64,000 nt of DNA, taken from sequence record PP337211. One strand, 5' to 3'. The translations under genes and the position numbers were made by a program. This document shows, in pieces, positions 3,073 to 62,965 of the stretch (the stretch's first letter is position 1; each line of letters starts with the position of its first letter). Source of the stretch: Escherichia phage ERS-1. The notes beneath the pieces are model-generated. The model ran no database searches and was not told the origin of the DNA. It worked only from the letters and a program-made list of their open reading frames with translations.

Positions 3073-3074
3073 GA

Positions 3075-4570: not shown

Positions 4571-4596
4571 TCTTCGGCGAGGGTATTTGTATCGCT

Positions 4597-4630
4597 GAAG
4601 AAGTATAGCCGGTTGTTGCAAGAAGTAGAG
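4597..4630 (-). promoter_or_regulatory. Sigma70-like promoter, copy of the recurring family (-10 TATACT, -35 TCTACT, 16-bp spacer)
   Basis: rc sequence CTCTACTTCTTGCAACAACCGGCTATACTTCTTCAG; gene with RBS begins ~30 nt downstream. Confidence 0.45.
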
Positions 4631-6651: not shown

Positions 6652-6739
6652 GTGCGCTTGGGAGGGGGGCCCAACGCTCGACTTCGTGTGCTGAAGAAGT
6701 ATGAAGTGGAGAGGCAGTGGAAGCCCTGTGGGGCTGGGG

Positions 6740-25489: not shown

Positions 25490-25942
25490 TTAGCCCTTTA
25501 CCGGCCTTCTCTTCCGGAGTCGATGAATCTTGCTGGCGGTTTTGCCGTGCCGGATTGCCGGTGTTCCGTCGCGGCCCGCGCAATTCACGCGTGGGCCTTC
25601 GCCTCTGGCGTATGTCGGTAGCGGACACCACAGTACGGTTGGCGAAAAGGGAAGCCCCCTGGCCGGGGGCCCCTGGGCCTCCCCGGATCCGTCCCTCGCC
25701 CACCGCGGCCCGCCTTGAACTGACCCTTGGCGAGGCCCTGGGCGATCCTTTTCGTTGGCCGGTTGGTGACCTTGCCCTGCTGGCGCGGAGGCGCTGACCG
25801 CCGCAGGTGCCGCCGCCCGCCGGGCTTCCGACTCCAAAGGGTGGTCCTGGCTTCTCGTTGGCCTTCGGTTTTTTTGCTGACCTGCTCGCGGATGGTCCGT
25901 GGGCTGGCCGGTTGCTGCGATAATGTGGTCGCCCTGGATCAC
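25490..25942 (-). CDS. Hypothetical protein, start overlapping upstream stop (GTGA)
   Basis: rc ...GVQ-TGA overlaps GTG-ATC-CAG (MIQGDHIIAATGQPTDHP...); an A7 run follows shortly after. Confidence 0.25.
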   Translation of the reverse strand: MIQGDHIIAATGQPTDHPRAGQQKNRRPTRSQDHPLESEARRAAAPAAVSASAPAGQGHQPANEKDRPGPRQGSVQGGPRWARDGSGEAQGPPARGLPFSPTVLWCPLPTYARGEGPRVNCAGRDGTPAIRHGKTASKIHRLRKRRPVKG

Positions 25943-27353
25943 TGAACACCTGACTTTAGTGCCTGCTGCTCCACCCCTTCCTCTACCTGGGCTTGATGAA
26001 CGGTGAGTTCCGGGGACGCCCTTCGGCCTCCGCGACGGTGGCGGGTGGTGCTCGACCTGGTAGCCCGTGGCCGGTTCCTGGAGGGCTTCGGCGCGGGCCT
26101 CCGGCCTTCTTCAGGCCCTTCGCGCGCGCATTGGCCAGCTCTGGTGAACCTTGTCCGGTTCAGGCTGGCTTCGCCGCCCTTGGCGGTTTCGTTCTGGAGT
26201 TCGGTCCGGCTTCGCGCCGACGCTCGGCCTTGATTTCCTCCGGCGTCGCCGAAGCTTGCCCGGCTGTTGGCGAGGTCTTGGCCTTCGCTTCGGCGCGAGC
26301 GGCCTTGAGGGTACGGTTCCCTGCCGGTTTTCCTCACCTCCCTTGTGGGCTTCGTCCGGGACGGTCTGCCCTTTATCGCCCTGCTGTAAGATTCCCCGGA
26401 ACTGTTCCGGGACCTTGTCGATGGAATCGACCGGAGCTGAATTCAGGGTGGTGGAATTGTATCCTCGTTTGCCGTGGATCACCCGCCTGTCCCGGCGCCT
26501 TGCGGTTTGTGTCTGTAGCCTCTGGGGCTTTTCGCGTCGGTGCCCGCCTTGCGGAAGGCGTCCGGCTTGCGCTCCGCGAGTCAAGAGCCTTGCTGTTGCC
26601 TGATCCGAACTGGTCTGTTCCTGCCCGCCCTCCCGGCTGCTGGCCTTGGCCCTCGCCCCTAACCTCCTTCCTGGAAGGAGGCGGGCTGCGCTTCAAGTCC
26701 TGACACGCGGTCGCCGCCGGAACCCTGCCCCACGTTCTCCGCGGCCCGGCTTTCCCCTGACGTCCTGGATCGGCTTGCCCGCCTCCTTCGCCTTCCGGCG
26801 GAAGTCGATTTCACGCTTGGCGCGGGTCCGGGGTCGTTGCGGTCGGGCGATTGCCCGGAGGCCCTCGCCGTCGATGTAGGCGACCATCCGACCGGCAGTT
26901 GAAGTGGGCCGGGGGCTTCGCGTCCTTGGGCTGGAGCCGGGGATGTCCGTGGCAGCTGTTCGTCGCCCGGGCTCCCGCGGCCGTCCCGGGTGGCGTGCCC
27001 TGCCGTGGCCGACCGTCCGGCGTGCTCCTCCCCGGCCTTCGCCGTGATGATGTCGCTGTCGGCGTCCCGGGTCAGCCCGCGCGGTATTGGACCCGCGGTC
27101 GACCGCGGTTCGGACGATCCCCTGGGCGTCCCGCCGGGCGTCGAGCGATGCCGTCCTGGGCGCGTCTGCGCGTCCGACCCCGCTGCGATGTCGTCAATGG
27201 GCTCCCCGTTCGTCTGTCCGAGCTGAAGGGCCGTGGTCCTCGCTGCTGGTCAGCCGCCTCCGGTGCTGAACCTGTCCTGCAGGAACCGCCCTGGAACGGG
27301 CGGGAGGTGGCGATGGCCCGGAGCTGGTCCGCGCTTCATGCCTTGAAGCCACC

Positions 27354-27672: not shown

Positions 27673-30600
27673 TGCCTTCTCCATTTCTTCGGTCCGTTTG
27701 CTGAAGTGGTATAAGCCCGGTAATTGAGCGGCCGAGGACGATGCTCAAGGAGCCAAAGCCAAGAAGTGCCGGGTTCGACTCGCCTCCGGATTCCGGTTGC
27801 TTCGCCGCCTTCGCCGCCTTCGCCGCCCTCGCCGCCCCTCGCCCCTCCCCTTCGGCGGGTCTTCTGGCCGGGTCGGTGCCGGAGCTGCGCGGCCCATCGC
27901 CTCGCCGATCTTCCTTCTGCCCTCCCCTCGTCCGTTGAAGTCCTCCGGCAGGACCCCGCGGCGGAGGCCGTTCGGGTGCCCCGCGGCGACGTCGCGCTTC
28001 TCGCGTGCGACTTGGAGGGCCTGAAGGCCCGGGGCGTCCGTTTTTCCGTCAGGCTCCGGCCTGCGCGCCGCCGTTCGGCCCAGGCGGAGCCGTTCGCGGT
28101 GATGTCCAGGGCCTGGGCCGGGCGTCCTCGAACTGCCCGTTGTCGCGTTCCGTCGCCGGTCGCCTCCGCGCTGTCCGGCGCCGGGCGGTCGCCGTCGCCC
28201 GCCGGTCTGCGCTTCGGGAACTCCGCGCCAGGCCCGCCCCTTCCCGCCTCGGGTGTCCTTGAGGTCCGTGCGGCCCGCGGCGATGGCTTGGCCGGTGTGC
28301 TCACCAGAGAACCGGCCCGCCGGGTCCGGGTTGGGCCCTTGTCCGGCCTGACCACGGCCGGGTCCCAGTCCTCCCCGCACGCCCCCGAGGCGAGGATCGG
28401 GAAGCGGGAGACGGTGAGGATGTGGCGTTGGTCGGAGGAGGACTGCCTGTGAGCCACGTCCGTTGAGGTGAGCCGTGTCCGGGAGCGGGGGCTTGCCCGG
28501 CGAAGCCTTGGCGGTCCGCGTAGAAGGTGACCTGTGGGACGGGTAGTTCTGGCCCGTCGCCCCTTCCTCGCCCTTGCCCCCTTCTGGGCGTTGGACTTTT
28601 GCCGGCTCCCGGCTGAGGCCCGGCTCCGGACGCGGATGCGGCGCTTGGCGTCTCCGCGAAGCCGTCCTGCTCGGCGTAGTGTTCGATGATGCGGACGTGC
28701 TGGAGGACTTCACCCCGTCGATCACCTCTGACCGGGCGGCTGGGGTCGGCTCTGATCAGATCCTGTACGGGCGGTGCTCTCCCGGCGGTCCTTTGCGGGT
28801 CCGGGGTTGGCCGTCCTCCCGCGGGGCCGGGCGGGGGTCGATGAGGACGTGGCAGGGCCTTGCCTTGCCTTCGCGAACCCTTGATGGGCCAACGTTTGTC
28901 GTTCCCCGCAGGTTCCTTGTTGGTGATCGTCTCCAAATTGCCTTGGGCACGTCTCGCCTCCAGCTTGATCGGCTCGCTGAGGGCTTGCCGCTCTGGGCGT
29001 CCGCGTCTGTTCGACCTTGTTGAGGAGGACGGCGGAGGCCTGGTGCTCCTGATAGCCCTTGTCCGTCTCCCTCCTGGTGGCGGGTACGCTCCGCCCGCCT
29101 CGCGGATCGTTTGCCCCGCCTGGTCTCCATGACGTGCCGTGCGGAGGTTGGGCGTCGCCCCCGCTGGTCGTGGCGGGGGGCTCTTCGGGCTTTGTCGGCC
29201 GGTTGGTTCTCCTGGTTCGCGGATCTCGCCCGAAGGCGAGGACCCTGGCAGTTGCACCGAGGTTGCCCTGCTTGACGCGCGTGGCTCGTGCGCGGTAGCG
29301 GATCGCGTCGGCGTGGTCCTCCGCCTCCGTGTTTGTTGTCCGTCCTCGTCGTCGTGGGGGGGGGACCGTCCGATGGTCTGTGATGCCTGTCGAAAGACGG
29401 GACCTGCCGGGACCTCGCGCGGTCCCCCGCCCGCCGGAGGTAGTCGCCCCCCAGGCTCGCGGATTCGCTCCTGCCTGCTTGCGCGAGCCTGGGCCTCGTC
29501 CGCGGGCGTCGGCGACGCCCTTCCTCTCCGTCTGGCGGCGATGCCGTCGCCGTTCTCCCGTCGAAGATGGAGGAGCTGCGGGGCCGGGCTGACCCACCTT
29601 CCGGCGCCCAGCCCCTCCTCCCGGCCCTTGCCCTTGGGCGACCTCGGAGGTGAGGCGCGGATGCCCTCGTTGCGCGTTCCGTTCCTGCCGTACCGCCCTG
29701 GAACGGGTGATCGCCCCGCCTTCCCGGCCTCGCGGCCGTTCCCCTGGAACGGCTCCCCTTCCGACTCTGCCTCGGCGACGGCGAAGGGCTTGCAGCTGCC
29801 CCGTCGAAGCCGCGGCGACTTTCACCGCTTCGGGATCGCCGATGGCGGGACGGAGGGCGGGTGCACGTCCCCGCGGTAGATGTCGTCGGTGTCCCTTCCC
29901 GCGCAGACGCCCCAGGAGCCGTGGAGCCGGCGGCGAGTTCGGAGGGGTTCCGGCCGCGGCTCGAATCTTGCCGATGTACTCCGGGCGGCGTGGGGGTATC
30001 CGGTTTTCGGCACGGACCGGTGGATGGCGACCCGGGGCGGTTCGCGCTCGCCGTCTCGTCGCGTCCAGGATTGCCCACCGCGGCTGTGGGGAGGCGGAAG
30101 CGGGCCTCTGACCCTGTTGTGGCCGGGGCCGTAGGGGTTGGTGGTCGCCCGGTAGCGGGTCCCGGCTTCGCGGGAGTGGTGGTGTCCGTTAATGGCGAGC
30201 CCCGCCGTCGCCCGTTGGTGCTCTTCCCGCCGGTTGCGGATAGGCGTGGCCGTGGCAGTTCAATCCTCCGCGACTTCTGGCGCCCTGCTCCTCGCCGTCC
30301 GGGAGGTCTTCTGTGCTCCCCTTGTTGTACTTGGCCCCCGGGAAGATGCGCTTGAACCGTTGGTCTGTCGATCGCGTCTGAGGGCTGGGGTAGGTCTGAC
30401 GGGGAACTGTATGCCCCGCCTCTCCACCCGTAGCCCTTCCCCCGCGCTGGAGGAAGCCTTCCCTGGTCGGTCTTGCCCGGGCCGCGCGTCCCCTGCCTCC
30501 CTCGAAGATCGGGTGCGCCTTTAGGAAGGCGAGCTGCGACCCGCACCGGCCCTTCCCTGTCGCCTCCGACTCCTTCCCCCGTCTCCGGTCCGCGGCAGCC

Positions 30601-31281: not shown

Positions 31282-31310
31282 AGTATAGCGTGAGCTTGGG
31301 CAATAGCCAA
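31282..31310 (-). promoter_or_regulatory. Sigma70-like promoter (-35 TTGGCT, 17-bp spacer, -10 TATACT)
   Basis: rc ccTTGGCTattgcccaagctcacgcTATACTcgcgg; sits ~100 bp downstream (minus sense) of AT-rich island B. Confidence 0.5.
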
Positions 31311-32999: not shown

Positions 33000-33730
33000 C
33001 CCGGATCGCCGGAGCCGGTACCCGGTGACGGTTCGGCTCCGTCGTCGGCAGTCGTGGCGGTGATCCTTCGCCCGGCGGACCTGTAGCCGTCGCGGGTCGT
33101 GCCCGGAGGAGGTGGATGGCGCGGCGGTCGGCGGGGCGTTCGGCGTGTCGTTGCCTCGCCCTCCTTCGCCGGGGTTCGGGGCCGCGTGGCCTTCCCCCTC
33201 TGGGCGGCCTTCAGGGCCGCGCGGACTTCGCCCGGGACCTCGTCGAGCAGCTGGATCGCGTCGGCGTCCAGGGGCTCGCGCCCCGTTGAACTTCGGCAGG
33301 GCCTCCTCGAACCGCCAGCGGCCCGGGCGAGGGTCGCCTGAGCGTCGCCGGTCCGGGAACCTCCTGAAGTGACGGAAGATGTCCGCGGCGAGGCGGGCCG
33401 CTCCTTCCCTCACTTGGACAGGCCTTGGTCACCGTGATCTGGAGGGCAGCCCGGGCGTCTCCGCCGCAGAACCCGCTGGCTGGTAGCCTTCCCGGGGGCG
33501 GTTGATCGGTTTGGTGCCGCTTCTTTACCTCCCGGGGCGTTGCTGGGCTTCGTCCGCTCGCGGCGGTCGATGGTCTGCCCATCTCCTCCTGTTGTCCGCG
33601 GCGAGTTCGAGGAGGGACGCCCGGGCGCGGGCTTCCGATCCGCCCTGGGTCGTTCGCGTTCCGCGGTCGCGGAGGTCGTTGAGGGTGTTCTCCCGGGTTG
33701 GTAGTTGTTGGCCGGCGGTTGGGTTCTCCT
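33000..33730 (-). CDS. Hypothetical protein; frame broken
   Basis: rc peptides ENTLNDLRDRGT...EARARASLLELAADN, REGAARLAADIFRHFRRFPD, PLDADAIQLLDEVPGEVRAALKAAQRGKA. Confidence 0.25.
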
Positions 33731-33749
33731 TCAGAAGGATGATCTGCTT

Positions 33750-34500
33750 GACTTACCTTTGCCTGGTGCGGTCGAAGTCGCGGTGAAGTGGGTGATCTTC
33801 GGCTGGACTTGTTTGGTGGCACAGGCCCTCCGGGGTCGCGATTTGGCGTAGTGGATGGAGTGGACCTGGTTCCGGCCGGGTTGCCGGGTTCCTGACTTCC
33901 GCGCGGGCGAAGGACTGGAATTGGTAGCTGTCGGACTTGATCGTGAGGCGGCCTTGAAGTTGCCCAGGGACAGGACGCGGCGGGCGGTCAGGTCCTGGCG
34001 ACCTTGGTCGATGGTCTCCTCCAGGAGGACGGCCTTGGTGGCGTTGGCGGATTTGGTTTTGCTCTTCTTTTCTGGGAAGTTCGGCGGATCGGCTCCGCCC
34101 CGGGTTGGTGTATTGGTTGATGGCGGCGATGATTTCCTGCCTCCGGGTGGTCGAAGGCGAGTTGCGTGGCTTGTAGAAGGTTCCGCTCCAAGTCCTCGCG
34201 CTGGGGTACTTCTGGTAGGGCGTTGAAGCGGCCTGTGATTGGCTGCGGCGTCTCCGCTGACCTCGCCCGAGTAGCCGTTGGTGTCCTGCTGTTGGCTTCC
34301 GGTTCTCAAATTGCCGGGGGCGGGTATTGCGCGCTGTTGGACCTGCCGGCATGTACCCTGTACGCGCCGTCGTACTCCTCCGGGGCCCTTCTGGAGGTGG
34401 CTGGCAGGCCCTTCCCACCGGAGGAAGCCGCGCCAAGAAGGTCGGGAGGATTTGGAGGCGCTGTCGTCGTTGTCGATGCGGGTGGCGGTGATCTTGCTCG
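33750..34500 (-). CDS. Hypothetical protein downstream of promoter at 34.55 kb; start codon reads ACG after a canonical RBS
   Basis: rc GGAGAACTCAC-ACG-AGCAAGATC (would give MSKITATRIDNDD... if ATG); peptides EIIAAINQYTNPG, KAVLLEETIDQGRQDLTARRVLSLGNFKAA. Confidence 0.3.
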
Positions 34501-34544
34501 TGTGAGTTCTCCAGTTCCGTTGTGGCCGGCACCGTCCCGACCTG

Positions 34545-34580
34545 AAAGAAGTATAGTGGGGGCCTCCGAAGAAGTAAAGC
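34545..34580 (-). promoter_or_regulatory. Sigma70-like promoter of the recurring family (-35 TTTACT 34573-34578, -10 TATACT 34550-34555, 17-bp spacer)
   Basis: rc GGGGCTTTACTTCTTCGGAGGCCCCCACTATACTTCTTTCAG; near-identical to the site at 36953-36990. Confidence 0.6.
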
Positions 34581-34908
34581 CCCGGAGGTCGATCGGTTGA
34601 CGGGCGGTAGGGGTCGGAGTCCTCGCGCGGCGAAGGCCGGACCGCTCCCGCCTCGCCTTGTCGTGGATTGTTCGCCGTCCGCCTCCGCCGTCGGTCCCGG
34701 TCCCGAAGCTGAAGCCCGGGATCGTCGCGCGGAGGACCGCGAGCCGTTGGGCGAGACGTTCGGGCGATCCCCGTTGCGAACTCATCGCCCGGCGGAGTTC
34801 CCCGGCTGGCCTGAAGGATTGGCGAGGGCGTCCGCGGGACCTGGAGGGCTTGATCGCCGGCGCGGTGGCCCTGTTGTCGTTGATTCGTTTCCTGCGAGTC
34901 GGGACGGG

Positions 34909-35616
34909 TCAGGGCGACGGCCCGGGCCTCCCCGAGGGCTCCGGTGAAGGCCCTGCGGTTGAGGACCCCGGTGAGGGGTCCTGGTAGGTGGCGGCGCAGG
35001 CCCCGCCCTCAGCTTGCCGCGGAGGGCTTCGAGGAGGTTTGGGCGCTTCCGGCTGGTTTTTCGGGTTGCCGATCCGCTGGAGGTCGGTCTGGGCCTGGCC
35101 GCGCACTTCCGCGTGCTCCTCGGCGGTGGCCTTGATCTTCGGCTCCTCGCCTTCCTCCGCGTAGAAGGCCCCGGACTTCGAGCAGGCAGGCCCCGGTCGC
35201 GCGGTCGATTGTTGTGACGACGTGGACCGTCTCGATGCCGTAGCCGTTCCTGGCGTCCCGGTGAAGGTGTAGCGGTGGCGGCGGTTGCGTCTGAAGGCGG
35301 CGTGCGCTTCTTCGGCTCGCCCGCTGTTGGGCTTCGGCTTCGGCGGGCGAGTGCGGGACCCGGCGGGCGACCTCCTGGGCGGCTGCGTTTCCCCTTCCTC
35401 GAAGTCCGGGAGGGGCGTCGATGCCCGCTGCCGATGCAGCCCGCGGGGCCTCGTGGAACTCCTTGCCCGCGTAGGGTCCGAAGGCGAACTTGCCGCCCGA
35501 TGGCTGGCGCTTCTCCTCCTCCTCCGCGGCCCGTTCCGCGGCCCTGCGGTCCTCGCGTCTTCCGCTCGCGCTCCCGGCGCTCGGCTCGCGGCGTCGGCGC
35601 GGTGAATCGCGTTCAT
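34909..35616 (-). CDS. Hypothetical protein with RBS-supported ATG; frame broken
   Basis: rc GGAGGAA-ATG (ATG is complement of 35614-35616), N-terminus MNAIHRADAAS; peptides GKFAFGPYAGKEFHEAP, NGYGIETVHVVTTIDRATGACLLEVRG, AFYAEEGEEPKIKATAEEHAEVRGQAQTDLQRIGNPKNQPEA. Confidence 0.35.
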   Translation of the reverse strand: MNAIHRADAASRAPGARAEDARTAGPRNGPRRRRRSASHRAASSPSDPTRARSSTRPRGLHRQRASTPLPDFEEGETQPPRRSPAGSRTRPPKPKPNSGRAEEAHAAFRRNRRHRYTFTGTPGTATASRRSTSSQQSTARPGPACSKSGAFYAEEGEEPKIKATAEEHAEVRGQAQTDLQRIGNPKNQPEAPKPPRSPPRQAEGGACAATYQDPSPGSSTAGPSPEPSGRPGPSP

Positions 35617-35762
35617 TTCCTCCCCGGAGGGAGTCGCGGGAGGTCGTGAGCTTCAGGCCCTTGCGCCTGGTGCTTCCCTGGGCCTTCTCGAAGGCTTCGT
35701 CGGGTCCTGGCCTGGCTCTTGACGTGGTAGCTGCGGACCTCGAAGGAGCCCTGAGGCTGCCT

Positions 35763-36915
35763 TCACCGTTGCGTTGCCCGGGCCGGGACCCGGGACGGCG
35801 TGGGTACGTCTCGCGGAGGGTGAAGAAGCTGTGCTCCCCCGACTCCGATGAAGGGTGGGGACGAAGGTGGAGGGGTTCTGGGTGCGGTTGTCGATGTGGT
35901 AGGCGGTCGAGCTCCTTTCTTGGGTGGGGAGGGCCTGAGCCCTCCCGTTCGATTGGCTGGCCGAACTTCCGGGGGCCCCGCGGCCTCCGCGAGGTCCGAA
36001 GCCGATGGCTCCTGTTGCCGTCGGCGCGGAGGACCTTTGTCGACCTGGCGGATCGCGCGATCGCCGGTGAAGGTCCGGGCGGCGCTGGCCTTGGCTTCGC
36101 GGGTGCCGGGAACTTTTGCGCGGCCCCGACTTCGCCCTGGGAGGTGGTGCCCTGTCGACGGTTCGCGGGCGGCGTGGGTCTGGCGGGAGGATGGTTCGAT
36201 CGGTTCTCCGCTTCTCAGGTTGTTAACGTGAAGAAGCAGACCTGCCGCCGTTTGCCCGAAGAAGTAAAGCCCCTGGTGGCCTCTTTTTCGACCCGCGAGG
36301 AGGGAGGGCCGAGCCTCCCGCTTCGTCTCGCCTTGCCTTCGGCTTCCCGGCCTTCGCCTCCGCGGCGGCGATGATGATAGACGGGGCAGGGTGCCGTTTG
36401 GTAGTAGAAGGCCCGGAGGAAGGTGGTGCCGTGCTGGCTTGTTCGTAGTGGACGTTGGCGTGGACCGGGAGCCCGCCGAAGATGTCGTGGAGGCGGAGGG
36501 CGTTGTTGTACTGCTCCTGCGCTCCTTCCGTCGCGGATGGACTTGGTTGCGGCTTCGACCTTGGCGTTGTCGCTGGCGCGTTCGATCTTCACCCTTGCCA
36601 GCGGCCTTGATAGCGGCGCGGACGGCTCCGAGGGCTTCGATCTGGGCGACGGTCGCGGCGGTCTGCGGGTCGCGGAGGGCGAGGGCGGAGTGCTTGGCCT
36701 TCCGTTGTGGGGTAGTCGGCCAGGTTTGGGCGCGGTCCGACCGCGGTGCGGGCGTCGTGCTGATGTCCGGTACCCTGCCGGCGACGTCGCGCTTCTGGCT
36801 CGAAGGCGCTGTTGAGGTCGCGGAGGGCTTCTCGTCGAGCGGCCTTGGAGGTGAAAGCCGGCCTCGAAGCGGGCGGTGGCGCGGTCGATGTAGAAGGAAG
36901 CGGTGCGGGCCGATG
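35763..36915 (-). CDS. Hypothetical protein; start codon reads ATC after RBS GGGAGAA; frame broken
   Basis: rc peptides FYIDRATARFEAGFHLQG, ALRDPQTAATVAQIEALGAVRAAIKAAGKGE, ARVKIERASDNAKVEAATKSIRDG, TTFLRAFYYQTAPC. Confidence 0.3.
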
Positions 36916-36952
36916 TTCTCCCGTTTCTGTGGTTGCCGTTCTCGTTGAACGT

Positions 36953-36990
36953 GAAGAAAGTATAGTGGGGGCCTCCGAAGAAGTAAAGCC
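36953..36990 (-). promoter_or_regulatory. Sigma70-like promoter of the recurring family (-35 TTTACT 36982-36987, -10 TATACT 36959-36964, 17-bp spacer)
   Basis: rc GGGGGGGCTTTACTTCTTCGGAGGCCCCCACTATACTTTCTTCACG. Confidence 0.6.
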
Positions 36991-39900
36991 CCCCCCGCGC
37001 GGTTCTTTTGATTCGGTGGGCCCGTGGTGGTCCCGAGCTGGCCGGCCCCCTCCCTCCGCTCCTCCGCTCCTTTCGCCCTGTTGGCCCCCGGCTCCCCGGC
37101 GGCATCTTCGCCGCGGCCTCCGCCATCCGGGCGCCTCGCGGTCCGTGTCGTGGAGGATGCGGCCAGTTGCCGAGTCGATTTGCTGCGGGTCCCTTGGGTT
37201 CTCCTTCTGGGTCGCCCCGGAGGACGTTGGGTGCTCGGAGGAGGGATCTGGCGGGGTGGTCTTTCCTGGCCGGCGTGGACGGCTTGCGCGCCTTCCGGCT
37301 TCGACCTGCCCCGCTCCTTCGCCCGTGCGCGGTGCGGGTGTCCCGCGGCGGAGATCCCCGGGATCGGCACGCCCGCCCGGCGATAGTAACCTCGGCAACG
37401 GCGATGTTGGGCTACGGCCCCTGGCCGGGTCGCTTCGCGTCGGGTACCGCCCAACCCTGCGGGCCAGGTCGGTCTGCGCGGAGCGCATTGCCTTCGGCGG
37501 GCGCTTGGGCTGGAGCCGCCCTGGTCCCGCCCGGCAACTGGACCGTGGAGGGTTCCACCCCGCCGCCGGGTAGGCGCCTGGAGGTTGCGTCGCCCTCGAG
37601 GTGTCTGGCTTCGCCGGATCCGGTTCGGCCGTCGAACGGGATCGCCCCGACCTGAATGACCCCGGCGTCGGCCGGTCGCCGCTTCGTTTTCCTGCCGATC
37701 GGCGCTGCCGGTTCGCGTTGTCGTCGTGATCACCTTCCTCCTCTTTGTTTGATCTCGCTTTGAAATCCCGGGGCCTTTGTTGCGGCATCCCGGACCACTC
37801 GCCGCCCTCCGCCTTTTTAGGGGCGGGCCTCCGTCCGGTTGAAGGGGTGAGCGGCGGTGGTCCGCTGGTCCCGGTGTGCGACTCCCAGTCGCGGGAACCG
37901 ATAGGCCCCCGGCGGGGGTTGATGAAGTAGCGTGGGGCGACCGCCTCCGAAGCGGTGCGGAACCGATAGGCCCCTGTGCCCTGCCACTCCCCGCGGCGGG
38001 GTTTCCTCCGGCTCGTCCGCCTCCCGGCGGCGGGCGCTTCGCCTTCCCCTTCTTGACCTTGCGGACGCGGGCCTTGCCGACCGGGCTGTTCGAGAAGGCG
38101 AGGTGGAGGGCGTAGCGCGGTGACCGTCCGCTGGCCGTCGATTGGCTGAGTTCTCCGGCTTTGGGTTCGGAAGAAGTCCGGCTCCTTTGGCTCGCCCGGG
38201 GGGCGGTCGCGTCCGCTCCGGCAACCTGACCATCCTGCAGGGCTGACGCGGCGGCGGGTGAACCTGTGAGCCCAGGGGGGTGAATCTGGATCTTGTGCCC
38301 TGCTGCGCTGGGATCCCTGTGACGTTCTGGAAGGACTGGGCCGTGGTCTGGAAGGACCTTCACCCCCGGGCCGTCTGCCCGTGGAAGGGTGTAGGCCCGG
38401 TGGGCGACTCCGGCCCCAGGTGGTCGCCCGGGAGGTCCGGATGAAGTCCTTTGCCCCGCTTCCCCGTCGTTTGTGGCGGGTTCGGTGGTTTCTCCGGTAG
38501 GGGTTGTTGGTCGAAGCCCGGGGCGGTCCTGTCCCGGGCCCGTGATCGGTCCCGACTCCGGCGGCGGGGCGGCGGGCGTCCGCCTGAACCTGCTCCGCCT
38601 GCCGGCCGCCGCGAACCGGGTTGCCCTTTGGCCTGGCGGGTTGAAACGGAGGTCTTGGCCTCCTGGCGTGGGCGTAGCCGTTCCCTTCTTGGTTTGAAGG
38701 GAACCTCCCGGGATGTACCCGGCCCTCGGTCCCGGTTCTCCTTCAGTTCTGGCCCTCCTCTCGTCGTCCGTTCCTTGCCCGTGCCGCTCCGCTCCTCCCT
38801 GAGGTCGCCGCGAGCCGTCGCCGGTCGGACGCCCGGGCCTTCTGCGCTGTTCCTCACAGCCTCCACCTGCCGACGGAAGGGCGAAGGCGAGAAGGCGGAG
38901 GCCCCCGTGGATCGCCGCGTCGGAAGGTTTGCCGGCGGCCGCTCCGCCTTGGGCTTGTACGTCCCGTGGGGCGCTTGTTCGGGGTCTTGGTTTGGTGCTG
39001 GCCCTCCTTCGGGTGCCGATGAATCTGGTGCCAAGCGGTCCGGGTCGCGCTCCTCGCGGATCGCCTCCCGGTGCCCGCCCTCGATCCGTGCTCCCGTGCC
39101 AAGCCCCTGGCTCGCCCTGGAAGGCGAGCTGGTGCGCTTCCCCGGTCGGCGCCCGCTCCGGGTAGGTGAGCTGGGCGGCAGTCCTTGCCACGTTCTTCCT
39201 GCCCGTGCCCGTCCGTGGAGTTCGCTGAAGTCGCCCGAGGCTTCGACTTGGCAACGGTACGCGGCCCGTCCTCGAAGGCCCCGCGGGCGGTTTGGCGTTG
39301 AATCTCCGCGAAGTGGCGACGGAAGCGGGCCGCGCGGAACTGGAGTTGGTGGGCGACGGACGGGCCGCCGAGGACCTCGTCCGCGGTGTGATGCCCTGCC
39401 CGCTGTCCGTAGTCGCGGACCTCCTCCGGCTTCGCGGAGGGTACGGCGGCGGCGATTGCCTCGAAGGCGACGGCCGGGTAGCCTTGCGCGCTGCCTCCTC
39501 GCCCTTCTTCGGGCGTAGGTTCCGAAGAAGCGATGGCCGGGTTGTTCGTCTTGATCCGTGTTCGTCTCCGTGTCGATCCGGGGTTTGTCGTCGTCCGGCT
39601 TCGGGAGGAGGGCGATGGCGCCCGCTTCGCGGAGTTCCTTCGGTGGAGCGGTCGCGGTCCCGGGATCGCCAGGCCGGTGAGCCAACCGATGAGCCGGCGT
39701 GTCGGTGGCGGCGGGTCGGCTTCCCTGGAGTCTTGGGCAAACACTCCCGGCGCTGGACCCGGTGCACCTGCTCCGAGGCGAGGACGCCCCGGGCGATGAC
39801 CTGAACCCTCCCGTCCGTGAGGGAGGCGTTGCCGGCACTCCTCGGCTGGGTACGGCCGGGCTGCTTCGTCCGTTCGTCCCTGCCGGCCCTCCGTGGAGTT

Positions 39901-42871
39901 CCCCGAGGCGCTGATCTGCCTGCGCCACTTCCCCGTGGCTTCTCTGGCGGTTTGAGGTAGCGAAGGCGGCGCGCTGCTCCTGGTTTTCGTTCTGCTGCCT
40001 TCGCCCGTTGGCTTCGAGGCGCTTCTGCTTCTCCGGTACGTCGCGGCGAGTTCCGCCGAGCGGCCCCTCCCCGAAGGCCCGGACCGCATCCTGGGAGGCC
40101 ACCCGGGTCGATGTTGTCGCCGTACTTCTCCCCCTGGTACTCCGCGGCGGCTCCCGCCGTCCCGATCGGTCTGGAGGAGGCGCTGCTGGCTCGTGGCTGG
40201 CTGGTCGATGTCCGTGGAGGACTTCGCTGGCGGACTGGCGATGCGATCGGACCGTGACCTGGTACTTGCGGGGGTCCTCCGGGTTGCGCCCGAGGCGGGC
40301 CTGGCACGCCTGGATGGTAGTGGTTGTGCTGGTTCTCCTTCGGCGGTGGGGGTTGGCTTTCCGAGGTGGCCGCGGCCCGTAGACGTTCGCTGTCCTGGCC
40401 CTCGAAGAAGCCCCCGGCCTGGAAGGTCGGCCACCGTCCTTCGGCTCCGGCGGCGACCCCCTCCGCGGACTGGTCCGTTGGGGCGGCGTCCGCGGACTCG
40501 AAGCCCCGGCGGTGAAGAAGTGGCCGGAGTCGCTGAGGATGTAGAACTTGTCCGGTTGTCCCAGCGCGCTCCCCGGCTCCGGAGGTTATCGCGTGCTGGA
40601 CTTTCTTCCGCACGGGCTCCGGTCCGTTGCGGCGGCGGTTCACCCCCATCTGGAAGCTTCGCCGGCCCCCGAAGGTCGTTGCTTCTCCGCGACCTGGGCG
40701 AGGGTGATGAAGATGTTTGCGGGTCCTTTGCAGTTCCTGGACCTGGCTCTGGTCCAGTGTCTCGACCGGGACGGCGGCGACCGTGGCGAGGCCAGTGACC
40801 TGCTCCGCCACCTCGCCCGGTCGGCGGCGACTTCCGCCGGGCGCTTCGCCGAAGGCGTCGTCTGCCCTGCGGGTGATCGATTCTTGGGTTTCGTCGCTCG
40901 TTTGGTTCTCCGAGGTTCGGGGTACGGTTGCCCTGGGGTCGGGCGGGATCGTGCCTGTCCTGCCGCTCGAAGCGGGCCGGGTCCGGCTTCGCCCCACCTC
41001 CGCCGGGAGGACCCGGACGGAGGGGCGAGGCGTGGGGAATTGCTGCCGATCTGCGGCTCGCCGGACCGTCTCCTGGCGTTATAGGGGCCGGTCCTCCGGT
41101 GCCGCCTGCGTGGCGAGGTGGGCCAGGGCGAAGATCCTGCGGTTTCGGTCGGGCTCTGCGCTTCGAGGTGGTCGGTGGACTGGAGGAGGTCGCCGGGGAG
41201 GGGCGGGCGTCCTCCGCCTCGCGCTTGCTCCTGGAAGGCGTGCCGTGGGTTGTCGGAACAGCTCGTGTCCTGTCTTCCCCGCCCTGCTCCTCCTTCGGCA
41301 GGTCCGCGGTGTCGGCGGGAGGCTGCCCTGCCCCGGCTCGTTCCGCTCCTGGGCGTCCCGCCCGAGTTCGTTCCTGTCGCTCCTGGAACTCGCGTTCGGC
41401 CCTCGCCTTCTGGGCGTGGGCTTGTTGGTGGATGCCGTGGACGGCCCGGCGGCGGTCGGGCGTCTCCGGTGAGACGGATGGTGGTCTTGCGGCTCAGGCG
41501 GTTCTCCGGTGATCTGTTCGCCCGGAAGGGAGGCGATGGTGTCGGCTTGGTTCTGCGGTGCGGGTTTCAGTCGCACCTGGCCGGTGGCGGAGGTGGATGA
41601 CCCTCAACGGCGTCCGGCCTGTCCGGTCCCCGGAGGTGCGCTTGCTGATGTAGATTTTGCCCGCTGCCCGGCCTGGACCTCCTCGCCCTGAGCCGCCAGG
41701 ATGATCGGGTACTCCTGGACGGCGAAGCCCTGCTGCTTGCAGAAGCCGCGGCCTTCTCCGCCGGTCCGTTCCGCTTGCCGGCGGTTGGGTCGCCTCCTCG
41801 CGGAGCTGGTCCCTTTACCCGGCTGCGAAGCCTTCGGCGCGGAGCGGGGGCGAGGAGTCGAAGCTGCGGGCGAGTTCGGAGACGGTCGCCAGGAAGGGCT
41901 TGGACGGCTCCACGCCCTCGAACTCCGCCTTCGCCGAAGGTCGCCTTGGGCGCGGTGACGGCCTTCTTGACGGGGGAGCCGTTGCGACTTGCAGAAGCCC
42001 GCGACGGGACGGCGGCGCTGATGTCCCCTTACCCTTGATGGCCCGATCTTCCCGTGTTCGGCCTTCTTCTGGATGTTGTAGGTGAACTGCGAGGGGTTGT
42101 CCTGCCGGTAGGCTTGTACGCCCTGGCAGACGAAGTGGGACGGGCCGGGATGGATGTGGACGGCCTCGTGGCGCTCCTGGGTCGCTGGCAGGATGATGTC
42201 GGAGCGGAGGCCGGTGTCCCGGCCCCCGCCCGGGACCCGGTTGCGGTTTCGTCCGCGGCGACTTCCGGGACCTCGCTGGCCTCGAGCCTCGCCCCGTTCG
42301 TCCTTCGTGTTGCAGTGGCTCGCGGAAGGCTTGCCCACTTTTCCCTGCTCCGCCGACCTCCGTGGTGAAGCCCGGACGGCGGTTGTTCGCTTCGCTACCG
42401 TTGAAGTCGGTTGACCGGACGTGATCCCGCTTGATGCCGAACTCCGGCTTGCGCTTCCCGGCGTGAATGGTGATGTCGTGGCCCTCGCGGAGGAGGATGG
42501 CGATGGCGCAACTGAGGCCGGTCCCGAAGAAGCCGATGGCCCCGGGGGTTCTCCTTCCAGCTGACCCCGAAGGTGGTGATGGACTTGGGGTCAAATGATG
42601 CCCTTGTTGCGGAAGATTATCCGTTGTGACTCCTCTTGGGTTGTTGAAGGGACCTTACTCCTCCCCTTGCCGGCGGTCCGGCAGGGCTCTGTCGATCTGG
42701 GGAGCCGTCCGCGTTGCCCCGCCCCTCCGGTTGTAGCTGATATGAACCTCCGGGCGGTCCGGTAGTCTGGAGACCCTGCTGGTGCCCCGGTGGTGACGGC
42801 GAAGGCGCAGCGGAGCCTGCCGGCGTGGTCGTGCCCCGCCGGCGTCCCTTGCAGGCCGAAGGCGATTGACT

Positions 42872-42979
42872 TCAACGAATCGCAACGGCTTTGCCTGGTC
42901 CTCGCGCCGACTTCTTGCGGTTTTGCGCCGCGCGGGATCGGGTGCCCGTGTATGCGGCGGAAGGCTTCTTGTAGTTCAT
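42872..42979 (-). CDS. Small basic protein (35 aa as read; may be truncated by a frameshift)
   Basis: rc AAAGGAGCAGCCCATC-ATG (ATG is complement of 42977-42979): MNYKKPSAAYTGTRSRAAQNRKKSARGPGKAVAIR then stop; ~65 nt downstream of the promoter at 43.05 kb. Confidence 0.3.
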   Translation of the reverse strand: MNYKKPSAAYTGTRSRAAQNRKKSARGPGKAVAIR

Positions 42980-43044
42980 GATGGGCTGCTCCTTTCCAAT
43001 CTTGAATCGCGGGTGCTGGTCTGGGGTTGGTTGTTTGGACTCGT

Positions 43045-43081
43045 GTGAAGAAGTATAGTGGTTGTCCGAAGAAGTAAAGCG
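43045..43081 (-). promoter_or_regulatory. Sigma70-like promoter of the recurring family (-35 TTTACT, -10 TATACT, 15-bp spacer as read)
   Basis: rc CCGCTTTACTTCTTCGGACAACCACTATACTTCTTCACAC. Confidence 0.5.
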
Positions 43082-43599
43082 GTTTGGTGGTTTGGCGCGC
43101 GGCGGATTTCCCGCCGGACCTGAAGGCGGGCGTTGAGGGCCGCGCGGTGGTCGGAGGAAGTCCGCGGCACGTGCACCTGGGGCTCCCCCCTCGGTGAAGC
43201 GGACCTTGCAGCGTCCTGGCCTGCTCCTCCGTGTAGGCCATCCCGCCCCCTCGGCTCCCGCTTCGTCGCTTCCGCGTGTCGCTCGGCGGGGGTGCTCCTC
43301 GGGAACGGCGGCTTGTCCGACTTCGGGCTGTCCTTCTGTAGGCTCCTGGGTCGGTCGACCTTGGGCGAATCGAACGGGCTGCCGGGTCTTGTCCCTGTGC
43401 GCCCGGACCTGCTCCGCGGCGGGAGGTGGGCGCAGGCGCGCTCTCGATCGTGCGCCTCGAAGCCGTTCGTTGGTTGGAATTTCCGCCAGTTTCTGCTCCG
43501 ACTGCGGCCTGCTGTCCGGGAAGGCCCGGTGAGCGCTTGCCGAAGCCGGTGCGGCTGGCGTGGAGTTCGGCCTGGTCGCGGAGGTCGTTGGCGTAGTCG

Positions 43600-46400
43600 T
43601 CCGTGGGTCCTTCACCACCTTGCCGCTCCGCCTGTCCTGGTCGGTCTTGAGGCGGCCCTCCCCTGGCTCCTGGCCTTCCCTTTGGGTTTCCGGTGAGCGC
43701 CGTCACTTCTGGTCCTGCAGGGCGCGGGTCTCGGGGGGACTGGCGAACCTCGAAGGTGCTTGTGCCGGGTGAGGAGGAAGTGGAGGCCTGTGTTGGGCCC
43801 CTGTTGTCCGGTTGTCCTTGATGCGCTTGAAATAGGCGTGGTCCTGCTTGTGGCCCTCGCCCCTTTCGTGACCGAGAACCGGCGCCTTCCGGGCCCCGTA
43901 CCTTCCCGGACCCTTCGTTCGAGGCGAGGACCTGGTGGAGGTGCTTCGGCCGCTTCCCGTCCGCCCTTGCCCTCGATCCCTGGTGTTCGGTCATCAGGGT
44001 CGAACCTGCTTTCGTGCTTCTTGTCTCCGGCGAAGAAAGCCATCACCGAACAGCAGGACTAACCAGATCGCGGAGGTGGGCGTTGAAGGAGCCCACCAGG
44101 CGCTTCGAGTCGCTGACTTGGAGGTAGTGACGCCCAACATCGTGCCCGTGACCTTGGCGAAGAAGGACTTGCCGGTGCCGCGGCGACCGCGGAGGACCAC
44201 GGCCCTCGCCCGGGCCGTCCGGGGTGCTGGACCTCCGCGCCCCTCCCGACAGGTAGCGGCAGTGCTCCGGGTTCCCTGAGCCTGGACGTCGTCGCGGATG
44301 TGGTCGGGAAGGGCGCGCTCTCGCCCGGGAGGGAGTCGCCAACCCGCGCCTGGGTCGTAGGCTTCTTCCACCTCCTGGCCGGGGGTGGTGATGGGCTCGT
44401 GTTGGCGGCGCTGGGCGATCCGTTTGTAGGCTCCCGCGGCCTTCTCGATGGGCTTGCCCTCCTCCAGCGCCCAACCACTTCACCTTGATGTGGCGGTAGC
44501 GGTTGCGGAAGTCCTCGAAGGACTGCTCGCTGATTTGGTCCGCTTCATCGCTGGGTCCCGAACCTCGCTGACGATGCGGCACTTCTTCTGCCGATGTCCG
44601 CGACTGACGGCGTGCTTCTCGTTGAAGCTTGCGCGGCCAGGGTCCACCGCCTCCCCGCGGGCGTTCGATCTGCCGTGGGCGTAGCCTTCCCGTTCGGCTT
44701 GTCTCTGACGCTCGCGGCGATTTCGTCGGAGCCGGTGATCACCGCGAAGACGTTTGGGGACCTCCGCCGCCAGGTTGGTGCCTCCAACCTGGCTTCCCGA
44801 CCGGCAGAGGGGTACTGGTCGGGTCCGTGGGTCCTGCCCGGTGCCCTGCCCTGCGTGGTCGCTGATAGCCTTCCCGCGCCGGCCGGGCTCCGGCTCCTCC
44901 GTCCCGATGTCCGGGACGTTGCCCGTGATCTTGCCTTTGCACGGCCCCCCGGCCTGGCCCTGCTCCGCCTTTGGACTCGAACCGCGGGGGCGAATTGTTC
45001 GATGGGGCAGCTGGCCTCGTCGCTACGAGACGGCGAGGGTCGGCTGGCGACCCTTCTTGACCTTCTTCGCGGTGGGCGTCGATCGTGCCCGGGAGGCGGG
45101 CGATGCGAGCTCCGTTGTGGCGGTCCGCCTGAAGCACCTTCTCCGGCTGGATGTTGTACGCTTCCGCTCTGAGCCTTCGCCGCCGATCCGGCGATGTCCG
45201 CTTGTCGGACGGGTTTGGCTGCCAAGCCCTGCATAGCCCCCGCCCGAGTCGATGATGACCGTGGGCTTGGCGTGTAGGACTGGAGGCTTCGGCGCCGCGC
45301 CCGCTCCTCCTCGAAAGCCTCCCCGGCTCGCGGTCGATGTCCCGTGAAGCCTGGCGAGGCGGGCCAGTTGTCCTCCTTCGAGGCTTTCACGTTTGATTCG
45401 CCGGCGGACCGGGTTGGCGTGGAAGGCGTTGCGCTTGCCCTGATGCCCTTCGATCGCTCTGCGGCCTTCTGCCTGTGGTTGGGCGGAATGCCACCGTCTC
45501 CGTTTTCCCGTCCGGGATGATGGCCGTTGGGTACCACGGCCTCCCGGTCCCTTTCCTCCTTCAAGAAGTCGATCGCGTCCTTGGTCTTGTGTTTTGGTGT
45601 TTTCTGCCCATTTGATCCCCCGGCTGAAGGATATTCCCGAAGGCGCTGGCCGCGCTTTCCCCCGTCCTCCTTTGGATGACCGGAGGCGTGTGCCGGAGGC
45701 GGCGGCGATTTCGCGCTGGCGTTTTGCCCGCCCGGCGGCGGATGGGAACCGGCGTGGGCTTCGGCTCGTCCGAGGTGCTGGCGCGGTCTGATCGTCCGGC
45801 GGCGGTCCGCTTCCCGTCGCAGCGGTCCGGGCGCCTGTCCTTCGCGGCTTCGATCGGTTGAGGCCCTTGCGGCGGCGGTGTAGGCTTTCGCCTTGGTTGG
45901 TGCGGCAGGCCGGGCAGGACTCCTTGGTTCTTGGAAGGCGTGTCCGCTTGTGCGGCCCCTGCCCGTTGTCGTTCCCGCGAACCTGGCCCTGGTGCCGGCT
46001 ACCGTCCTTCCAAATAGACGCCGTCTCGTTCCCCCGACCTTCGGCGAGGAAGGCCCGGCCCCCGGCCTTGCGGCGACGGGCAGCGTGTCCTCGCTGGCGG
46101 TGAAGTGGTCCGCTCAAGCGGTCCGCCCCTGGGCGGCCTGTGTTGGTGAATTTCAATTTGGTTGCTGGTTGTAGTTCACGTCCGGGTCCCGGCAATGGGC
46201 TTCTCCTCGCCGGTCCGGTTGGCGACCGGATGACGGGGCGGAGGGAGTCCGCGTTGCGGCTTTGCTGGTTGCCCTCCTTCCACGTCGTAACGGCGGGCGA
46301 CTTCCGGCCTTTGACGCGCCGATTCCCTTCCTGCCCCCTCCCCCGGATCGCGGCCCGAGTAGTCGATGCCCGGGAAGGCGACCCGCTTCGCCTGCCTTCC
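43600..46400 (-). CDS. Primase-polymerase (PrimPol) / SF3 (D5-like) NTPase replication protein; frame broken; boundaries approximate
   Basis: PrimPol-type motifs KPTVIIDSGGGYAG and AYNIQPEKVLQADRHNGARIARLPGTIDAH (~45150-45270); C-terminal P-loop AVVLRGRRGTGKSFFAKV followed by GRHYLQVSDSKRLVGSFNAHLRDL (~44050-44200). Confidence 0.55.
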
Positions 46401-46429
46401 CCGCGGCCTCCAGGCTGTTGGACCTGGGG

Positions 46430-46445
46430 AAGAAGTATAGAGCGT
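46430..46445 (-). promoter_or_regulatory. Probable promoter -10 element of the same family (TATACTTCTTC); -35 degenerate
   Basis: agtata at 46434-46439 (rc TATACT) upstream of the primase-helicase gene. Confidence 0.3.
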
Positions 46446-47094
46446 GAAGCCGTTGTGAGCCGCAAAAAGTTGAGCGCGATTTGACCTCTGCGCAGGCTAC
46501 GTGCCGGCAATTCGTACCGCGGTCCGGGTGCAGGGCTCGGCGAGTTGTTCGTGCCCGGGCGGAAGCCGTTGAACCCGGTCGAAGCCCGCTGTCGTTGGGC
46601 CTGGAACCGTGACGGCTCCGACCTTCGTGGAGGGTCCTTGTCCTGCCCGCGACGTGTTGGGCCTGCCGAGGCGGCGGTCCCTGGTGGTTGCGGTCCTGCG
46701 ACGTTCCCGAGGAAATAACCGCTGGAGCCGTCAAGGACTCTGCCCCTTCTCGCGGCCTAGGGCCTGGCGATACCGTTGCTGCCCGCAAACTTTGGCAGGA
46801 CGGTGCCGTGATGTCGCTGCGCGGCCCTCGATCCTTCCGGTGACGGTCGGGGGTTGCCCGCGCGGCCCTTCTTCTCGACCGCGCGGACCTGGTCCGGTTC
46901 CCCCCTCACCCGCTGTGGTCGATGAGGTATGCCTTGTCTGTCTCGCGCTCGATGACCCTTCCGAGGTCCGGTGTTGTCGTTGCTGCGGCGGTGTTGTTCT
47001 CTGGGGGTTCGCCCCGGACTTCCTCCGGGCGGCGGCCCTTTGCGCGTGTGTTGGTGGGTGAGCAAGTGACCTGCGCGTCTGTTGATAGGGACTT

Positions 47095-54680: not shown

Positions 54681-54704
54681 TCTCCTTCAACTGTGAAAGT
54701 CAGC

Positions 54705-54738
54705 GCCTTACCCGGAAGAAGTAAAGCGGCGTTAATTC
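54705..54738 (-). promoter_or_regulatory. Weak member of the promoter family (-35 TTTACT intact, -10 degenerate)
   Basis: rc CGCCGCTTTACTTCTTCCGGGTAAGGCGCTGACTTTCACAG directly upstream of the RBS at 54681-54688. Confidence 0.3.
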
Positions 54739-57049: not shown

Positions 57050-57690
57050 GACCTCACGTGGAACCGCTTGTGCCGTCCGCGGCGAAGGCGGAGCGGCACC
57101 CGCAGCCCTTCCGCTTCATGTCCTGCTGAAGCCGGAGGGCGTGGCTCGGTCCGGGCTTGTTGCTGCCCGGGCTTCGACCTGTTCCTGCCTTGGTCGTCCG
57201 TTTCGGGGCGGGATCCTGTATGTCGGGAGACGCCCGCTCCAGCCCTCGCGGCGGGGATCGGGGCGTGGCCCGGGCGGCCGTGTCGGCGCCGCGCGGGGCG
57301 CGGGCCTTCTTCTCCTCCGCGGACTTCGGAGCCTTCTGGGCCTTCGGAGGCGACGGGGCGGGGGTTGCGGTTTGTTTGCGGTTTCGACCTTCTGGGTTCG
57401 GCCTGCTCTGCCGCTCAAACTTCCGGGTGCGCTTCGGCATAACGCGCCAGGCATCTTCTGGTGTGGGGCAATGGCGGTGGTCTTGTTGGCGAAGCGGCGC
57501 ACGTTCGGACGGACTTGCCGTTGCGGAAGGTGCCGATGACTTCGTCGGACCTGCTCGACCAGGGCTGGGCCGGAGGGCTCGCTGGGAGGCTTCGGTGTAG
57601 GCGACGTTGTCGAAGTTGATGGTGTTGGCGGTAGGCTCCTTTTCTGGGGTTGAGGTGCGATCTTGTTCGACCGTGAGAGAATCTTAACCC
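57050..57690 (-). CDS. Hypothetical small protein(s) downstream of RNR copy 2; frame broken
   Basis: rc peptides [69 protein letters not shown]...EEKKARAP. Confidence 0.25.
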
Positions 57691-57712
57691 TGGCCCCCGA
57701 AGAAGTAAAGTG
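57678..57712 (-). promoter_or_regulatory. Sigma70-like promoter of the recurring family (-35 TTTACT 57704-57709, 17-bp spacer, -10 TAAGAT 57681-57686)
   Basis: rc CACTTTACTTCTTCGGGGGCCAGGGTTAAGATTCTC. Confidence 0.45.
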
Positions 57713-58201
57713 GTTTGACTAACTTTTTCAGGTTCTCGGTCCGAAGGCCGGGTGCCCGTTGGACGGCGGAGGGCGAACCGTTGAGGCCTTCTTCCCTGAA
57801 GGCCCGGGCGGCGTCCCTCGTGCCCTGGTTCTCCTGTACCGGCTGGTTGCGCCCCGAGGTGTGCGGTACCCTGGCGACCTCGAAGCCCTGCGACGTCCTG
57901 GCAAACCCTTGCCGGTGGAAGTCCTGGCGCTGGGCCGGATAGCCGAAAGCCTCTGCGACGTCTCCGCCGGGTCAGGAGGATGACGTGCCGACCGCCGGTG
58001 GTGGGCCTCCACCGCGGCCGCGGGCACCCCGCGTCCCGGGCGGGCCGCTTGTCGTCCCGCTTCCGGCGCCCCGGGAAGGTGTGGAGGGTGTCGGCGCGGT
58101 CGAAGGTCTTGAGGTAGTCCTTGGCGATAGGCCCGCCTGCTTCGCCCTACGCCCTCCCGCGGAGGACCGCGGAGGGGAGCCAGGGGCCGGTCGGGTCCGT
58201 G

Positions 58202-60130: not shown

Positions 60131-60139
60131 GTTGAGGGC

Positions 60140-61306: not shown

Positions 61307-61334
61307 TGACCGTTCTCCGTTTCTGATGAAAAGA

Positions 61335-61355
61335 AGGGGGGCCCTTGAAGGCCCC
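61335..61355 (-). terminator. GC-rich hairpin upstream of helicase RBS (copy of 3052-3072)
   Basis: ggggggccc-ttgaa-ggccccc inverted repeat. Confidence 0.35.
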
Positions 61356-61364
61356 CTGAAGGTA

Positions 61365-62887: not shown

Positions 62888-62927
62888 GTGGTTCTCCGTT
62901 TCTTCGGTAGAGGGGTATCCCAATTGC

Positions 62928-62965
62928 TGAAGAAGTATAGCCGGTTGTTCGGAAGAAGTAAAGAG
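62928..62965 (-). promoter_or_regulatory. Sigma70-like promoter of the recurring family (-35 TTTACT 62957-62962, -10 TATACT 62934-62939, 17-bp spacer)
   Basis: rc CCTCTTTACTTCTTCCGAACAACCGGCTATACTTCTTCAG; paralogue of 4597-4630. Confidence 0.55.

Follow-up and report, generated by a model that had tools for sequence, protein, structure and literature searches.

A known promoter element of YuA/M6-like phages recurs on the minus strand of the Escherichia phage ERS-1 record PP337211

The closest described system is that of Pseudomonas phage YuA, the type phage of its genus, whose 28-bp repeats were reportedly annotated by Ceyssens et al. in 2008. The GenBank record of this phage (NC_010116) carries five such repeats as repeat_region features, described as "putative sigma70 promoter requiring phage-encoded cofactor". 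ONT-cappable-seq of YuA, on cells infected in early exponential phase (OD 0.3), subsequently gave nine transcription starts with a common motif (MEME E = 2.7e-26), which was found to "not resemble bacterial promoters" (Putzeys et al. 2024). Four of the nine had been tested earlier and were without in vivo activity, which led the same authors to suggest a requirement for phage-encoded factors; they also report that YuA does not encode an RNA polymerase. The lack of promoter activity of cloned YuA copies in uninfected cells is stated both in the YuA record and by Putzeys et al. Two sigma-70 promoters of YuA, TTAGGT-N17-TTCAAT and TTAGGT-N17-TGAAAT (YuA 489-568, 33014-33160), were active in the 2008 promoter trap, and no corresponding start is present for either of them in the 2024 infection data. 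The motif promoters are the opposite of this pair, being silent when cloned and active in infection.

The sequence analysed here is one strand of 64,000 nt, referred to as the window, from the record of Escherichia phage ERS-1 (PP337211). It is a YuA/M6-like phage genome (Yuavirus, Mesyanzhinovviridae): its nearest matches by megablast are YuA/M6-like siphoviruses of Pseudomonas, Bordetella and Sphaerotilus, with about 80-82% identity, and it is collinear with YuA in reverse complement. The window is longer than one 58.3-kb genome unit, by terminal redundancy or as a concatemer, with positions 1-5700 and 58300-64000 forming direct repeats about 58.3 kb apart which are 86-100% identical and differ by small indels. 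The differences between the two end copies are partly independent and partly identical miscalls. YuA proteins match the window with only 30-45% identity, the matches being spread over two or three frames. As the reading frames are heavily damaged, gene positions were taken from orthology and not from open reading frames.

The damage follows a strand-specific pattern. Base retention was quantified on the coding strand, which is the minus strand of the window, by comparison with Pa-C, YuA, SN1 and M6. On this strand T is retained at 58%, against 81-90% for the other bases, and nearly the whole of the loss falls at TG, retention depending on the base that follows (18% in TG, 87% in TC, 73% in TA and 68% in TT). 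With all positions closer than 6 nt to a TG set aside, retention is 93-94% for T, C and G and 84% for A. CA, the complement of TG, suffers only slightly, which makes the error strand-specific; at TG itself, both copies of the repeated ends mostly carry the same miscall. The T content of the window is 10.4% compared with 16% in the relatives, and its GC content 68.4% compared with 64.4%. Phages of this group carry thymidine-hypermodification genes (5-NedU-type pathway), and published restriction data on M6 suggested a modified T in TG or TC. In our interpretation, the errors come from long-read sequencing of one strand of DNA with thymidine hypermodified at TG. Damage at TG has destroyed most ATG/GTG/TTG start codons and frameshifted every gene, and it accounts for the loss of ATG start codons downstream of the promoters described below. 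The boxes of these promoters contain no TG, which explains why they survive in the window.

Full copies of the element are present at five loci, all on the minus strand, four of them with a spacer of 17 nt and one (43047) which reads 15. The focal site reads gcTTTACTtcttcggaggcccccacTATACTtctttcagg on the minus strand. This full copy (34538..34583) has its CTTTACTTCTTCGG box at 34579-34566, TTTACT at 34578-34573 and TATACT at 34555-34550, with a spacer of 17 nt, a C at -13 and A 34543 as its predicted start. The antirestriction-gene homologue (gp45 in YuA; ~34138-34498 in the window) follows downstream, the -35 box of this copy is flanked by a GC-rich inverted repeat, and its YuA orthologue is at 31098, where promoter P013 has its start at 31134. 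The copy at 36946..36990 (TTTACT 36987-36982, spacer 17, TATACT 36964-36959, predicted start A 36952) is located upstream of the gp42 homologue and corresponds to YuA 29058 (P012, start 29094); its -35 box sits within a hairpin formed by a G-run and CCCCC. At 43040..43081, upstream of the gp28 homologue and orthologous to YuA 22639 (P010, start 22676), TTTACT (43078-43073) and TATACT (43057-43052) are separated by 15 nt as read, and by 17 in the relatives. The copy at 57674..57712 (TTTACT 57709-57704, spacer 17) carries a variant -10 box, TAAGAT (57686-57681), which is the same in M6 and SN1. It stands at the start of the thymidine-hypermodification gene block, before the gp08 homologue, and its orthologue is YuA 7722 (P008, start 7758). 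The remaining full copy, at 62926..62965 (TTTACT 62962-62957, spacer 17, TATACT 62939-62934), overlaps the 3' end of the gp03 homologue, is upstream of the gp04 homologue and corresponds to YuA 2877 (P006, start 2914). For the last three copies, starts are predicted at ~43044, ~57674 and ~62926-62928. An A-rich tract, GAAAAAGTT, is found about 20 nt upstream of the copy at 57674..57712. Tracts of this kind, (A)AAAAGTT(G), occur about 15-25 nt upstream of the -35 box in several copies (gp08-, gp42- and gp43-type junctions), in the window at 57715-57725 and 36995-37010, and their position is like that of an UP element.

Partial copies are present at three further loci. Upstream of the gp43 homologue (36225..36270, minus strand) the CTTTACTTCTTCGG box is intact, while the -10 is degenerate (TCTGCT) and the spacer lengthened; Pa-C and SN1 keep a full site at this junction, which YuA has lost by deletion. 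At 54695..54727 (minus strand), upstream of the radical-SAM gene homologue (gp12), the -35 box is intact (CTTTACTTCTTCCG) and the -10 reads TGACTT, where the relatives have TAGACT. The orthologous repeat of YuA, at 10500, is annotated and has no transcription start detected by ONT-cappable-seq. The third is a lone -10-type box, CTATACTTCTTC, without a -35 box, at 46429..46440 on the minus strand, inside the homologue of the dCMP-deaminase gene (gp23). The box is shared by YuA, Bhz59 and others, but the orthologous spot in YuA has no mapped start and no gene start follows it, and a promoter role for this box is doubtful. Each site of the window maps to an orthologous YuA position, with 46429 falling inside gp23 and 36230 at the junction that YuA has deleted.

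Two weaker sites, both on the minus strand, were missing from the original prediction. A half box, CATACTTCTTC, lies at 6693..6703 upstream of the helicase (gp02) homologue and is conserved in YuA at 714, where no start was mapped. A CTATACT -10 box without the upstream 14-mer is found at 31282..31288, upstream of the small terminase gene; it is the orthologue of YuA P014, which was classed as sigma-70-like (start 33417). The heptamer is common to the element and to this sigma-70-like promoter, both in YuA and in the window. Window orthologues of two other YuA promoters are recognisable but degraded, namely those of the divergent phage promoter P016 (5'UTR of the major head gene, with a candidate ncRNA) and of the sigma-54 promoter P015, in the regions ~25536-25784 and 26403-26581.

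The site coordinates of the original prediction are all correct, and some of its other details need correction. It counted nine loci, one of them being a second reading, at 4594..4630 on the minus strand, in which the -35 box is degraded to TCTACTTCTTG. The two ends of the window are the same genome region, so that the sites at 4597-4630 and 62928-62965 are one locus, which leaves eight distinct loci. It gave the spacer as 15-17 nt, of which 17 is borne out; at 43047-43078 the 15 nt probably reflect a sequence error, since the relatives all have 17 and the missing bases are at TG, which is systematically miscalled in the window. Finally, the GGAGAA ribosome-binding site that it placed downstream of every site is present at about five of the eight loci, with AAGGAG found instead at 43047 and 57678, and no gene start at all at 46430.

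The recurrence of the T-rich element is far above expectation, and it is confined to one strand. The shared 9-mer TACTTCTTC has 12 matches in the window, compared with 0.07 expected from shuffles; all are on the minus strand and the plus strand has none, as had been claimed. When TWTACTTCTTC was searched with up to two mismatches, 25 matches were obtained in the window (6.1 expected), and the composite TTTACTTCTTC-N8-13-TATACT gave 4 (0 expected). For CTATACT, 7 matches were counted in the window, none of them on the plus strand, with 0.23 expected. A generic sigma-70 scan of 33500-47500 returned exactly two sites, at 34578 and 36987, both of them TTTACT-N17-TATACT. Each has 9 of 12 matches to the sigma-70 consensus and a spacer of 17, and this arrangement falls within the canonical definition of a sigma-70 promoter (at least 4/6 in each hexamer, spacer of 16-18 bp).

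YuA, Pa-C, SN1, M6 and Bordetella phage CN1 together provided 26 unique full sites for describing the anatomy of the element, and the consensus of these sites is CTTTACTTCTTCGG-N8-AC-TATACT-TnTT. The upstream 14-mer CTTTACTTCTTCGG, which contains the -35-like TTTACT, is almost invariant. The two hexamers are separated by 17 bp in 23 of the sites and by 18 in the other three, a C at -13 is found in 25 of the 26, giving CTATACT, and the discriminator is pyrimidine-rich, T(T)CTTC. The original prediction had built the promoter from a tandemly duplicated 12-bp box. A direct repeat of T(T/A)TACTTCTTC with a 23-bp period is indeed present in many copies; the -10-side box is however exact (TATACTTCTTC) in only 11 of the 26 sites, and in 7 it is displaced by one base (TATACTTTCTTC). 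Variants of the upstream box are not mirrored in the -10-side box, the two varying independently. The repeat is therefore real but loose, which weakens the idea of two equivalent protein half-sites.

The element of the window is the one described in YuA. The 28-bp repeats of YuA read CTTTACTTCTTCGG-N6-7-CACTATA, and these repeats, like the "phage promoter" of Putzeys et al., have the same sequence as the window element (CTTTACTTCTTCGG...CACTATACTT), the same strand relative to the genes, the same syntenic positions and the same downstream genes. Nothing of substance differs between the two phages; the copy at the gp43 junction has been kept in the window, Pa-C and SN1 and lost in YuA, and some of the window copies are degraded by sequence errors. 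The supplementary table of Putzeys et al. 2024 places YuA starts at 2914, 7758, 22676, 29094 and 31134. When combined with the positions of the boxes, these five starts follow the final base of TATACT by 7-8 nt, and the initiating base is A at four of them. This agrees with the reading of the sites as promoters, for which a distance of 6-9 nt had been set beforehand, and the search of related phage genomes that had been proposed together with it found the same element in YuA, Pa-C, SN1, M6 and CN1. The element is a conserved promoter heading early and DNA-metabolism operons of YuA/M6-like Pseudomonas phages.

With a 43-nt query, the element was found in at least 64 phage records, in 3-7 places each, belonging to Pseudomonas Yuavirus, Bordetella phages and Sphaerotilus phage SN1, and five copies with slight variation are present in Stenotrophomonas phage Bhz59. 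No TA[TG]ACT occurs on the coding strand of Abidjanvirus PA_LZ03, which belongs to a sister subfamily and also infects P. aeruginosa. Among 185,579 species genomes, for which roughly 3 chance occurrences of the composite were estimated, it was found only in Yuavirus-like contigs of two MAGs and in singletons near the chance rate, and in no host chromosome. A scan of IMG/VR for the 14-mer gave mostly chance singletons among the matches listed. The presence of the motif in related phages of four host genera (Pseudomonas, Bordetella, Sphaerotilus and Stenotrophomonas), together with its absence from PA_LZ03 and from host chromosomes, indicates on these sequence comparisons that it follows the phage lineage and not the host. 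The MAGs with Yuavirus-like contigs (DYKZ01000001/2; RDDZ01...) are labelled Anaerolinea thermophila and Microbacteriaceae. These contigs have a GC content of about 64-65% and are about 70-84% identical to the window; two of them, of 111.8 and 81.4 kb, are longer than one phage genome. Their presence in those MAGs is probably due to mis-binning.

Some of the copies may combine initiation with termination. Two copies, 34545 and 36953, have their upstream box enclosed by a GC-rich inverted repeat with stems of 5-9 bp; the z-scores of the folds are only -0.8 and -1.0, and a generic scan did not call these stems, whose loop is longer than 8 nt. Over all sites, stems of at least 5 bp are found in 23% of matched flanks and in 10.5% of swapped flanks, which is a weak effect. 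A hairpin around the -35 box was accordingly rejected as a general defining feature, being limited to a subset of copies, with a weak flank test and RNAfold z-scores that are not significant. In the data of Putzeys et al. 2024, the YuA termination site T013 (29082) falls within the P012 element and precedes the P012 start at 29094 by 12 nt (YuA 29040-29096), and such a 3' end is found only at the orthologue of 36953. The record of LKO4 has terminators annotated at the same sites. This suggests that the P012/T013 locus of YuA is a compact terminator-promoter module, termination probably being an added function of a subset of copies.

Our preferred reading, to which we assign a probability of about 0.7, is that these elements are lineage-specific promoters (Rabinowitzvirinae), used by the host sigma-70-family holoenzyme together with a phage factor that reads the upstream box. 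The operons that they head serve replication and thymidine hypermodification as well as host takeover and antirestriction. Judging from the geometry and the -10 box, the host holoenzyme would transcribe from the -10, while a factor supplied by the phage would recognise the upstream box and recruit or re-target the host RNA polymerase, with initiation expected 7-8 nt downstream of the TATACT hexamer. At a subset of copies (34545 and 36953), the GC-rich hairpin enclosing the upstream box would probably also terminate the preceding transcription unit. We infer a phage factor because the cloned copies are reported to be silent and because the 14 invariant positions are more than region 4 of sigma-70 reads. 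Such an architecture would be like that of T4 middle promoters, with which the element shares a -10 of the sigma-70 type, a conserved phage-specific upstream box where a consensus -35 would be expected, and a reported dependence on infection. It differs from them in the sequence and position of the box, and no MotA/AsiA-like protein was recognised among the 30 YuA early proteins scanned, so that the resemblance is one of possible mode of action and not of membership. The 20-bp motif of the LUZ19/phiKMV phage RNA polymerase is likewise short, highly conserved, lineage-wide and present at a handful of genome positions, but YuA-like phages lack an RNA polymerase gene, and the geometry of the element is that of sigma-70 promoters.

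Several observations sit uneasily with a cofactor. TTTACT-N17-TATACT is on paper a respectable sigma-70 promoter, which makes the reported silence of the clones surprising, and the motif heads the antirestriction gene, whose expression is expected to be immediate, which is awkward if a newly made phage protein is needed. These same points would favour ordinary host sigma-70 promoters acting without any phage factor, the inactivity of the clones then being technical (fragment boundaries, an adjacent hairpin or terminator, reporter context). This explanation has on its side 9 of 12 consensus matches at the optimal spacer of 17 bp, a start distance typical of sigma-70, an antirestriction operon that should fire at once, and conservation of the motif across hosts whose sigma-70 is itself highly conserved. 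Two independent sources nevertheless state that there is no activity in uninfected cells, the 14 contiguous invariant positions, which include CTTCTTCGG inside the spacer, exceed what sigma-70 reads, and a phage of the sister subfamily infects the same host without the motif. An ordinary sigma-70 promoter without phage help is therefore probably not what is seen here, and we consider this explanation unlikely.

Much less probable still is a reading of the elements by host RNA polymerase with the stationary-phase sigma factor RpoS. It is suggested by the C at -13 (25 of 26 sites), which gives CTATACT, by the 7 occurrences of this heptamer on the minus strand against 0.23 expected, and by the citation of (T/G)CTATACT as the -10 consensus of RpoS-dependent promoters in Pseudomonas, to which the heptamer is identical, including the C at -13. 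Here, by contrast, the heptamer comes with an invariant 14-bp upstream box, which is not a feature of RpoS promoters, with early exponential activity and with silence when cloned. RpoS is expected to be low in early exponential phase, and since the YuA starts were mapped in an infection at that stage (OD 0.3), dependence on it is rated low; RpoS should moreover be available in the host of the promoter trap, where no activity was seen. We consider it equally improbable that the main role of the boxes is that of a tandem operator, bound by a phage repressor or regulator, or that of intrinsic terminators. The 23-bp direct repeat is real in many copies, hairpins surround the -35 box at some of them, and the 3' end at YuA 29082 and the LKO4 terminators coincide with the element. 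Transcription starts map at the elements in YuA, however, the -10-side box, which is exact in only 11 of 26 sites and off by 1 nt in 7, does not vary in step with the upstream box, and the hairpins, limited to a subset, are not significant against shuffles; operator and terminator roles may be added functions rather than the main one. Two ideas based on the modified base were set aside. That the promoters need hypermodified thymidine, and are silent when cloned for this reason, is not favoured, given that the miscalls indicate modification at TG only and that the conserved boxes are without TG on the top strand. That TTTACT reflects avoidance of a modified TTGACA is unsupported, as the trap-active YuA promoters use TTAGGT, and not TTG, at -35.

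Returning to host holoenzyme with a phage factor, the search for this factor gave mainly exclusions. A Pfam scan of 30 YuA early proteins, which were also scanned against PHROG, found no sigma, MotA or AsiA-like domain. The sole recognisable DNA-binding protein, gp25 (XRE-type HTH), is also present in PA_LZ03, which lacks the motif, and a 63-aa TraR/DksA-like zinc-finger protein is missing from Bhz59, which has it; both were rejected as the cofactor. The ORF of the latter (63 aa, C4 zinc finger) is unannotated in YuA, at 28842-29030, and lies at ~36990-37190 in the window, with the gp42 promoter directly downstream. Identity among YuA, Pa-C, SN1, LKO4 and CN1 is 97-100%, and the ORF is far more conserved than its neighbours. 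Among the proteins present in all motif-bearing phages compared and absent from PA_LZ03 are the hypothetical proteins gp19, gp27, gp29, gp30, gp31 and gp36; for gp29, a PDB sequence search gave no match. As a tentative extension, with odds clearly against it as a whole, the 14-bp box, possibly with the partial copy downstream of the -10, could be the landing site of a small phage protein that re-targets the host RNA polymerase by analogy with sigma appropriation, some junctions doubling as terminators of the upstream unit; this putative protein would be unrelated to sigma-appropriation proteins and would be one of the gp19, gp27, gp29, gp30, gp31 or gp36 homologues.

The element was already known, having been annotated in 2008 and its starts mapped in 2024, and its recovery here is a rediscovery. 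It raises the question of why copies resembling good sigma-70 promoters are silent outside infection, and the comparative data narrow the search for the recognising factor, both annotated candidates (the TraR/DksA-like protein and gp25) being a misfit to the phylogenetic profile. In this sequence, the main use of the element is to mark operon starts where the reading frames are too damaged for gene calling.
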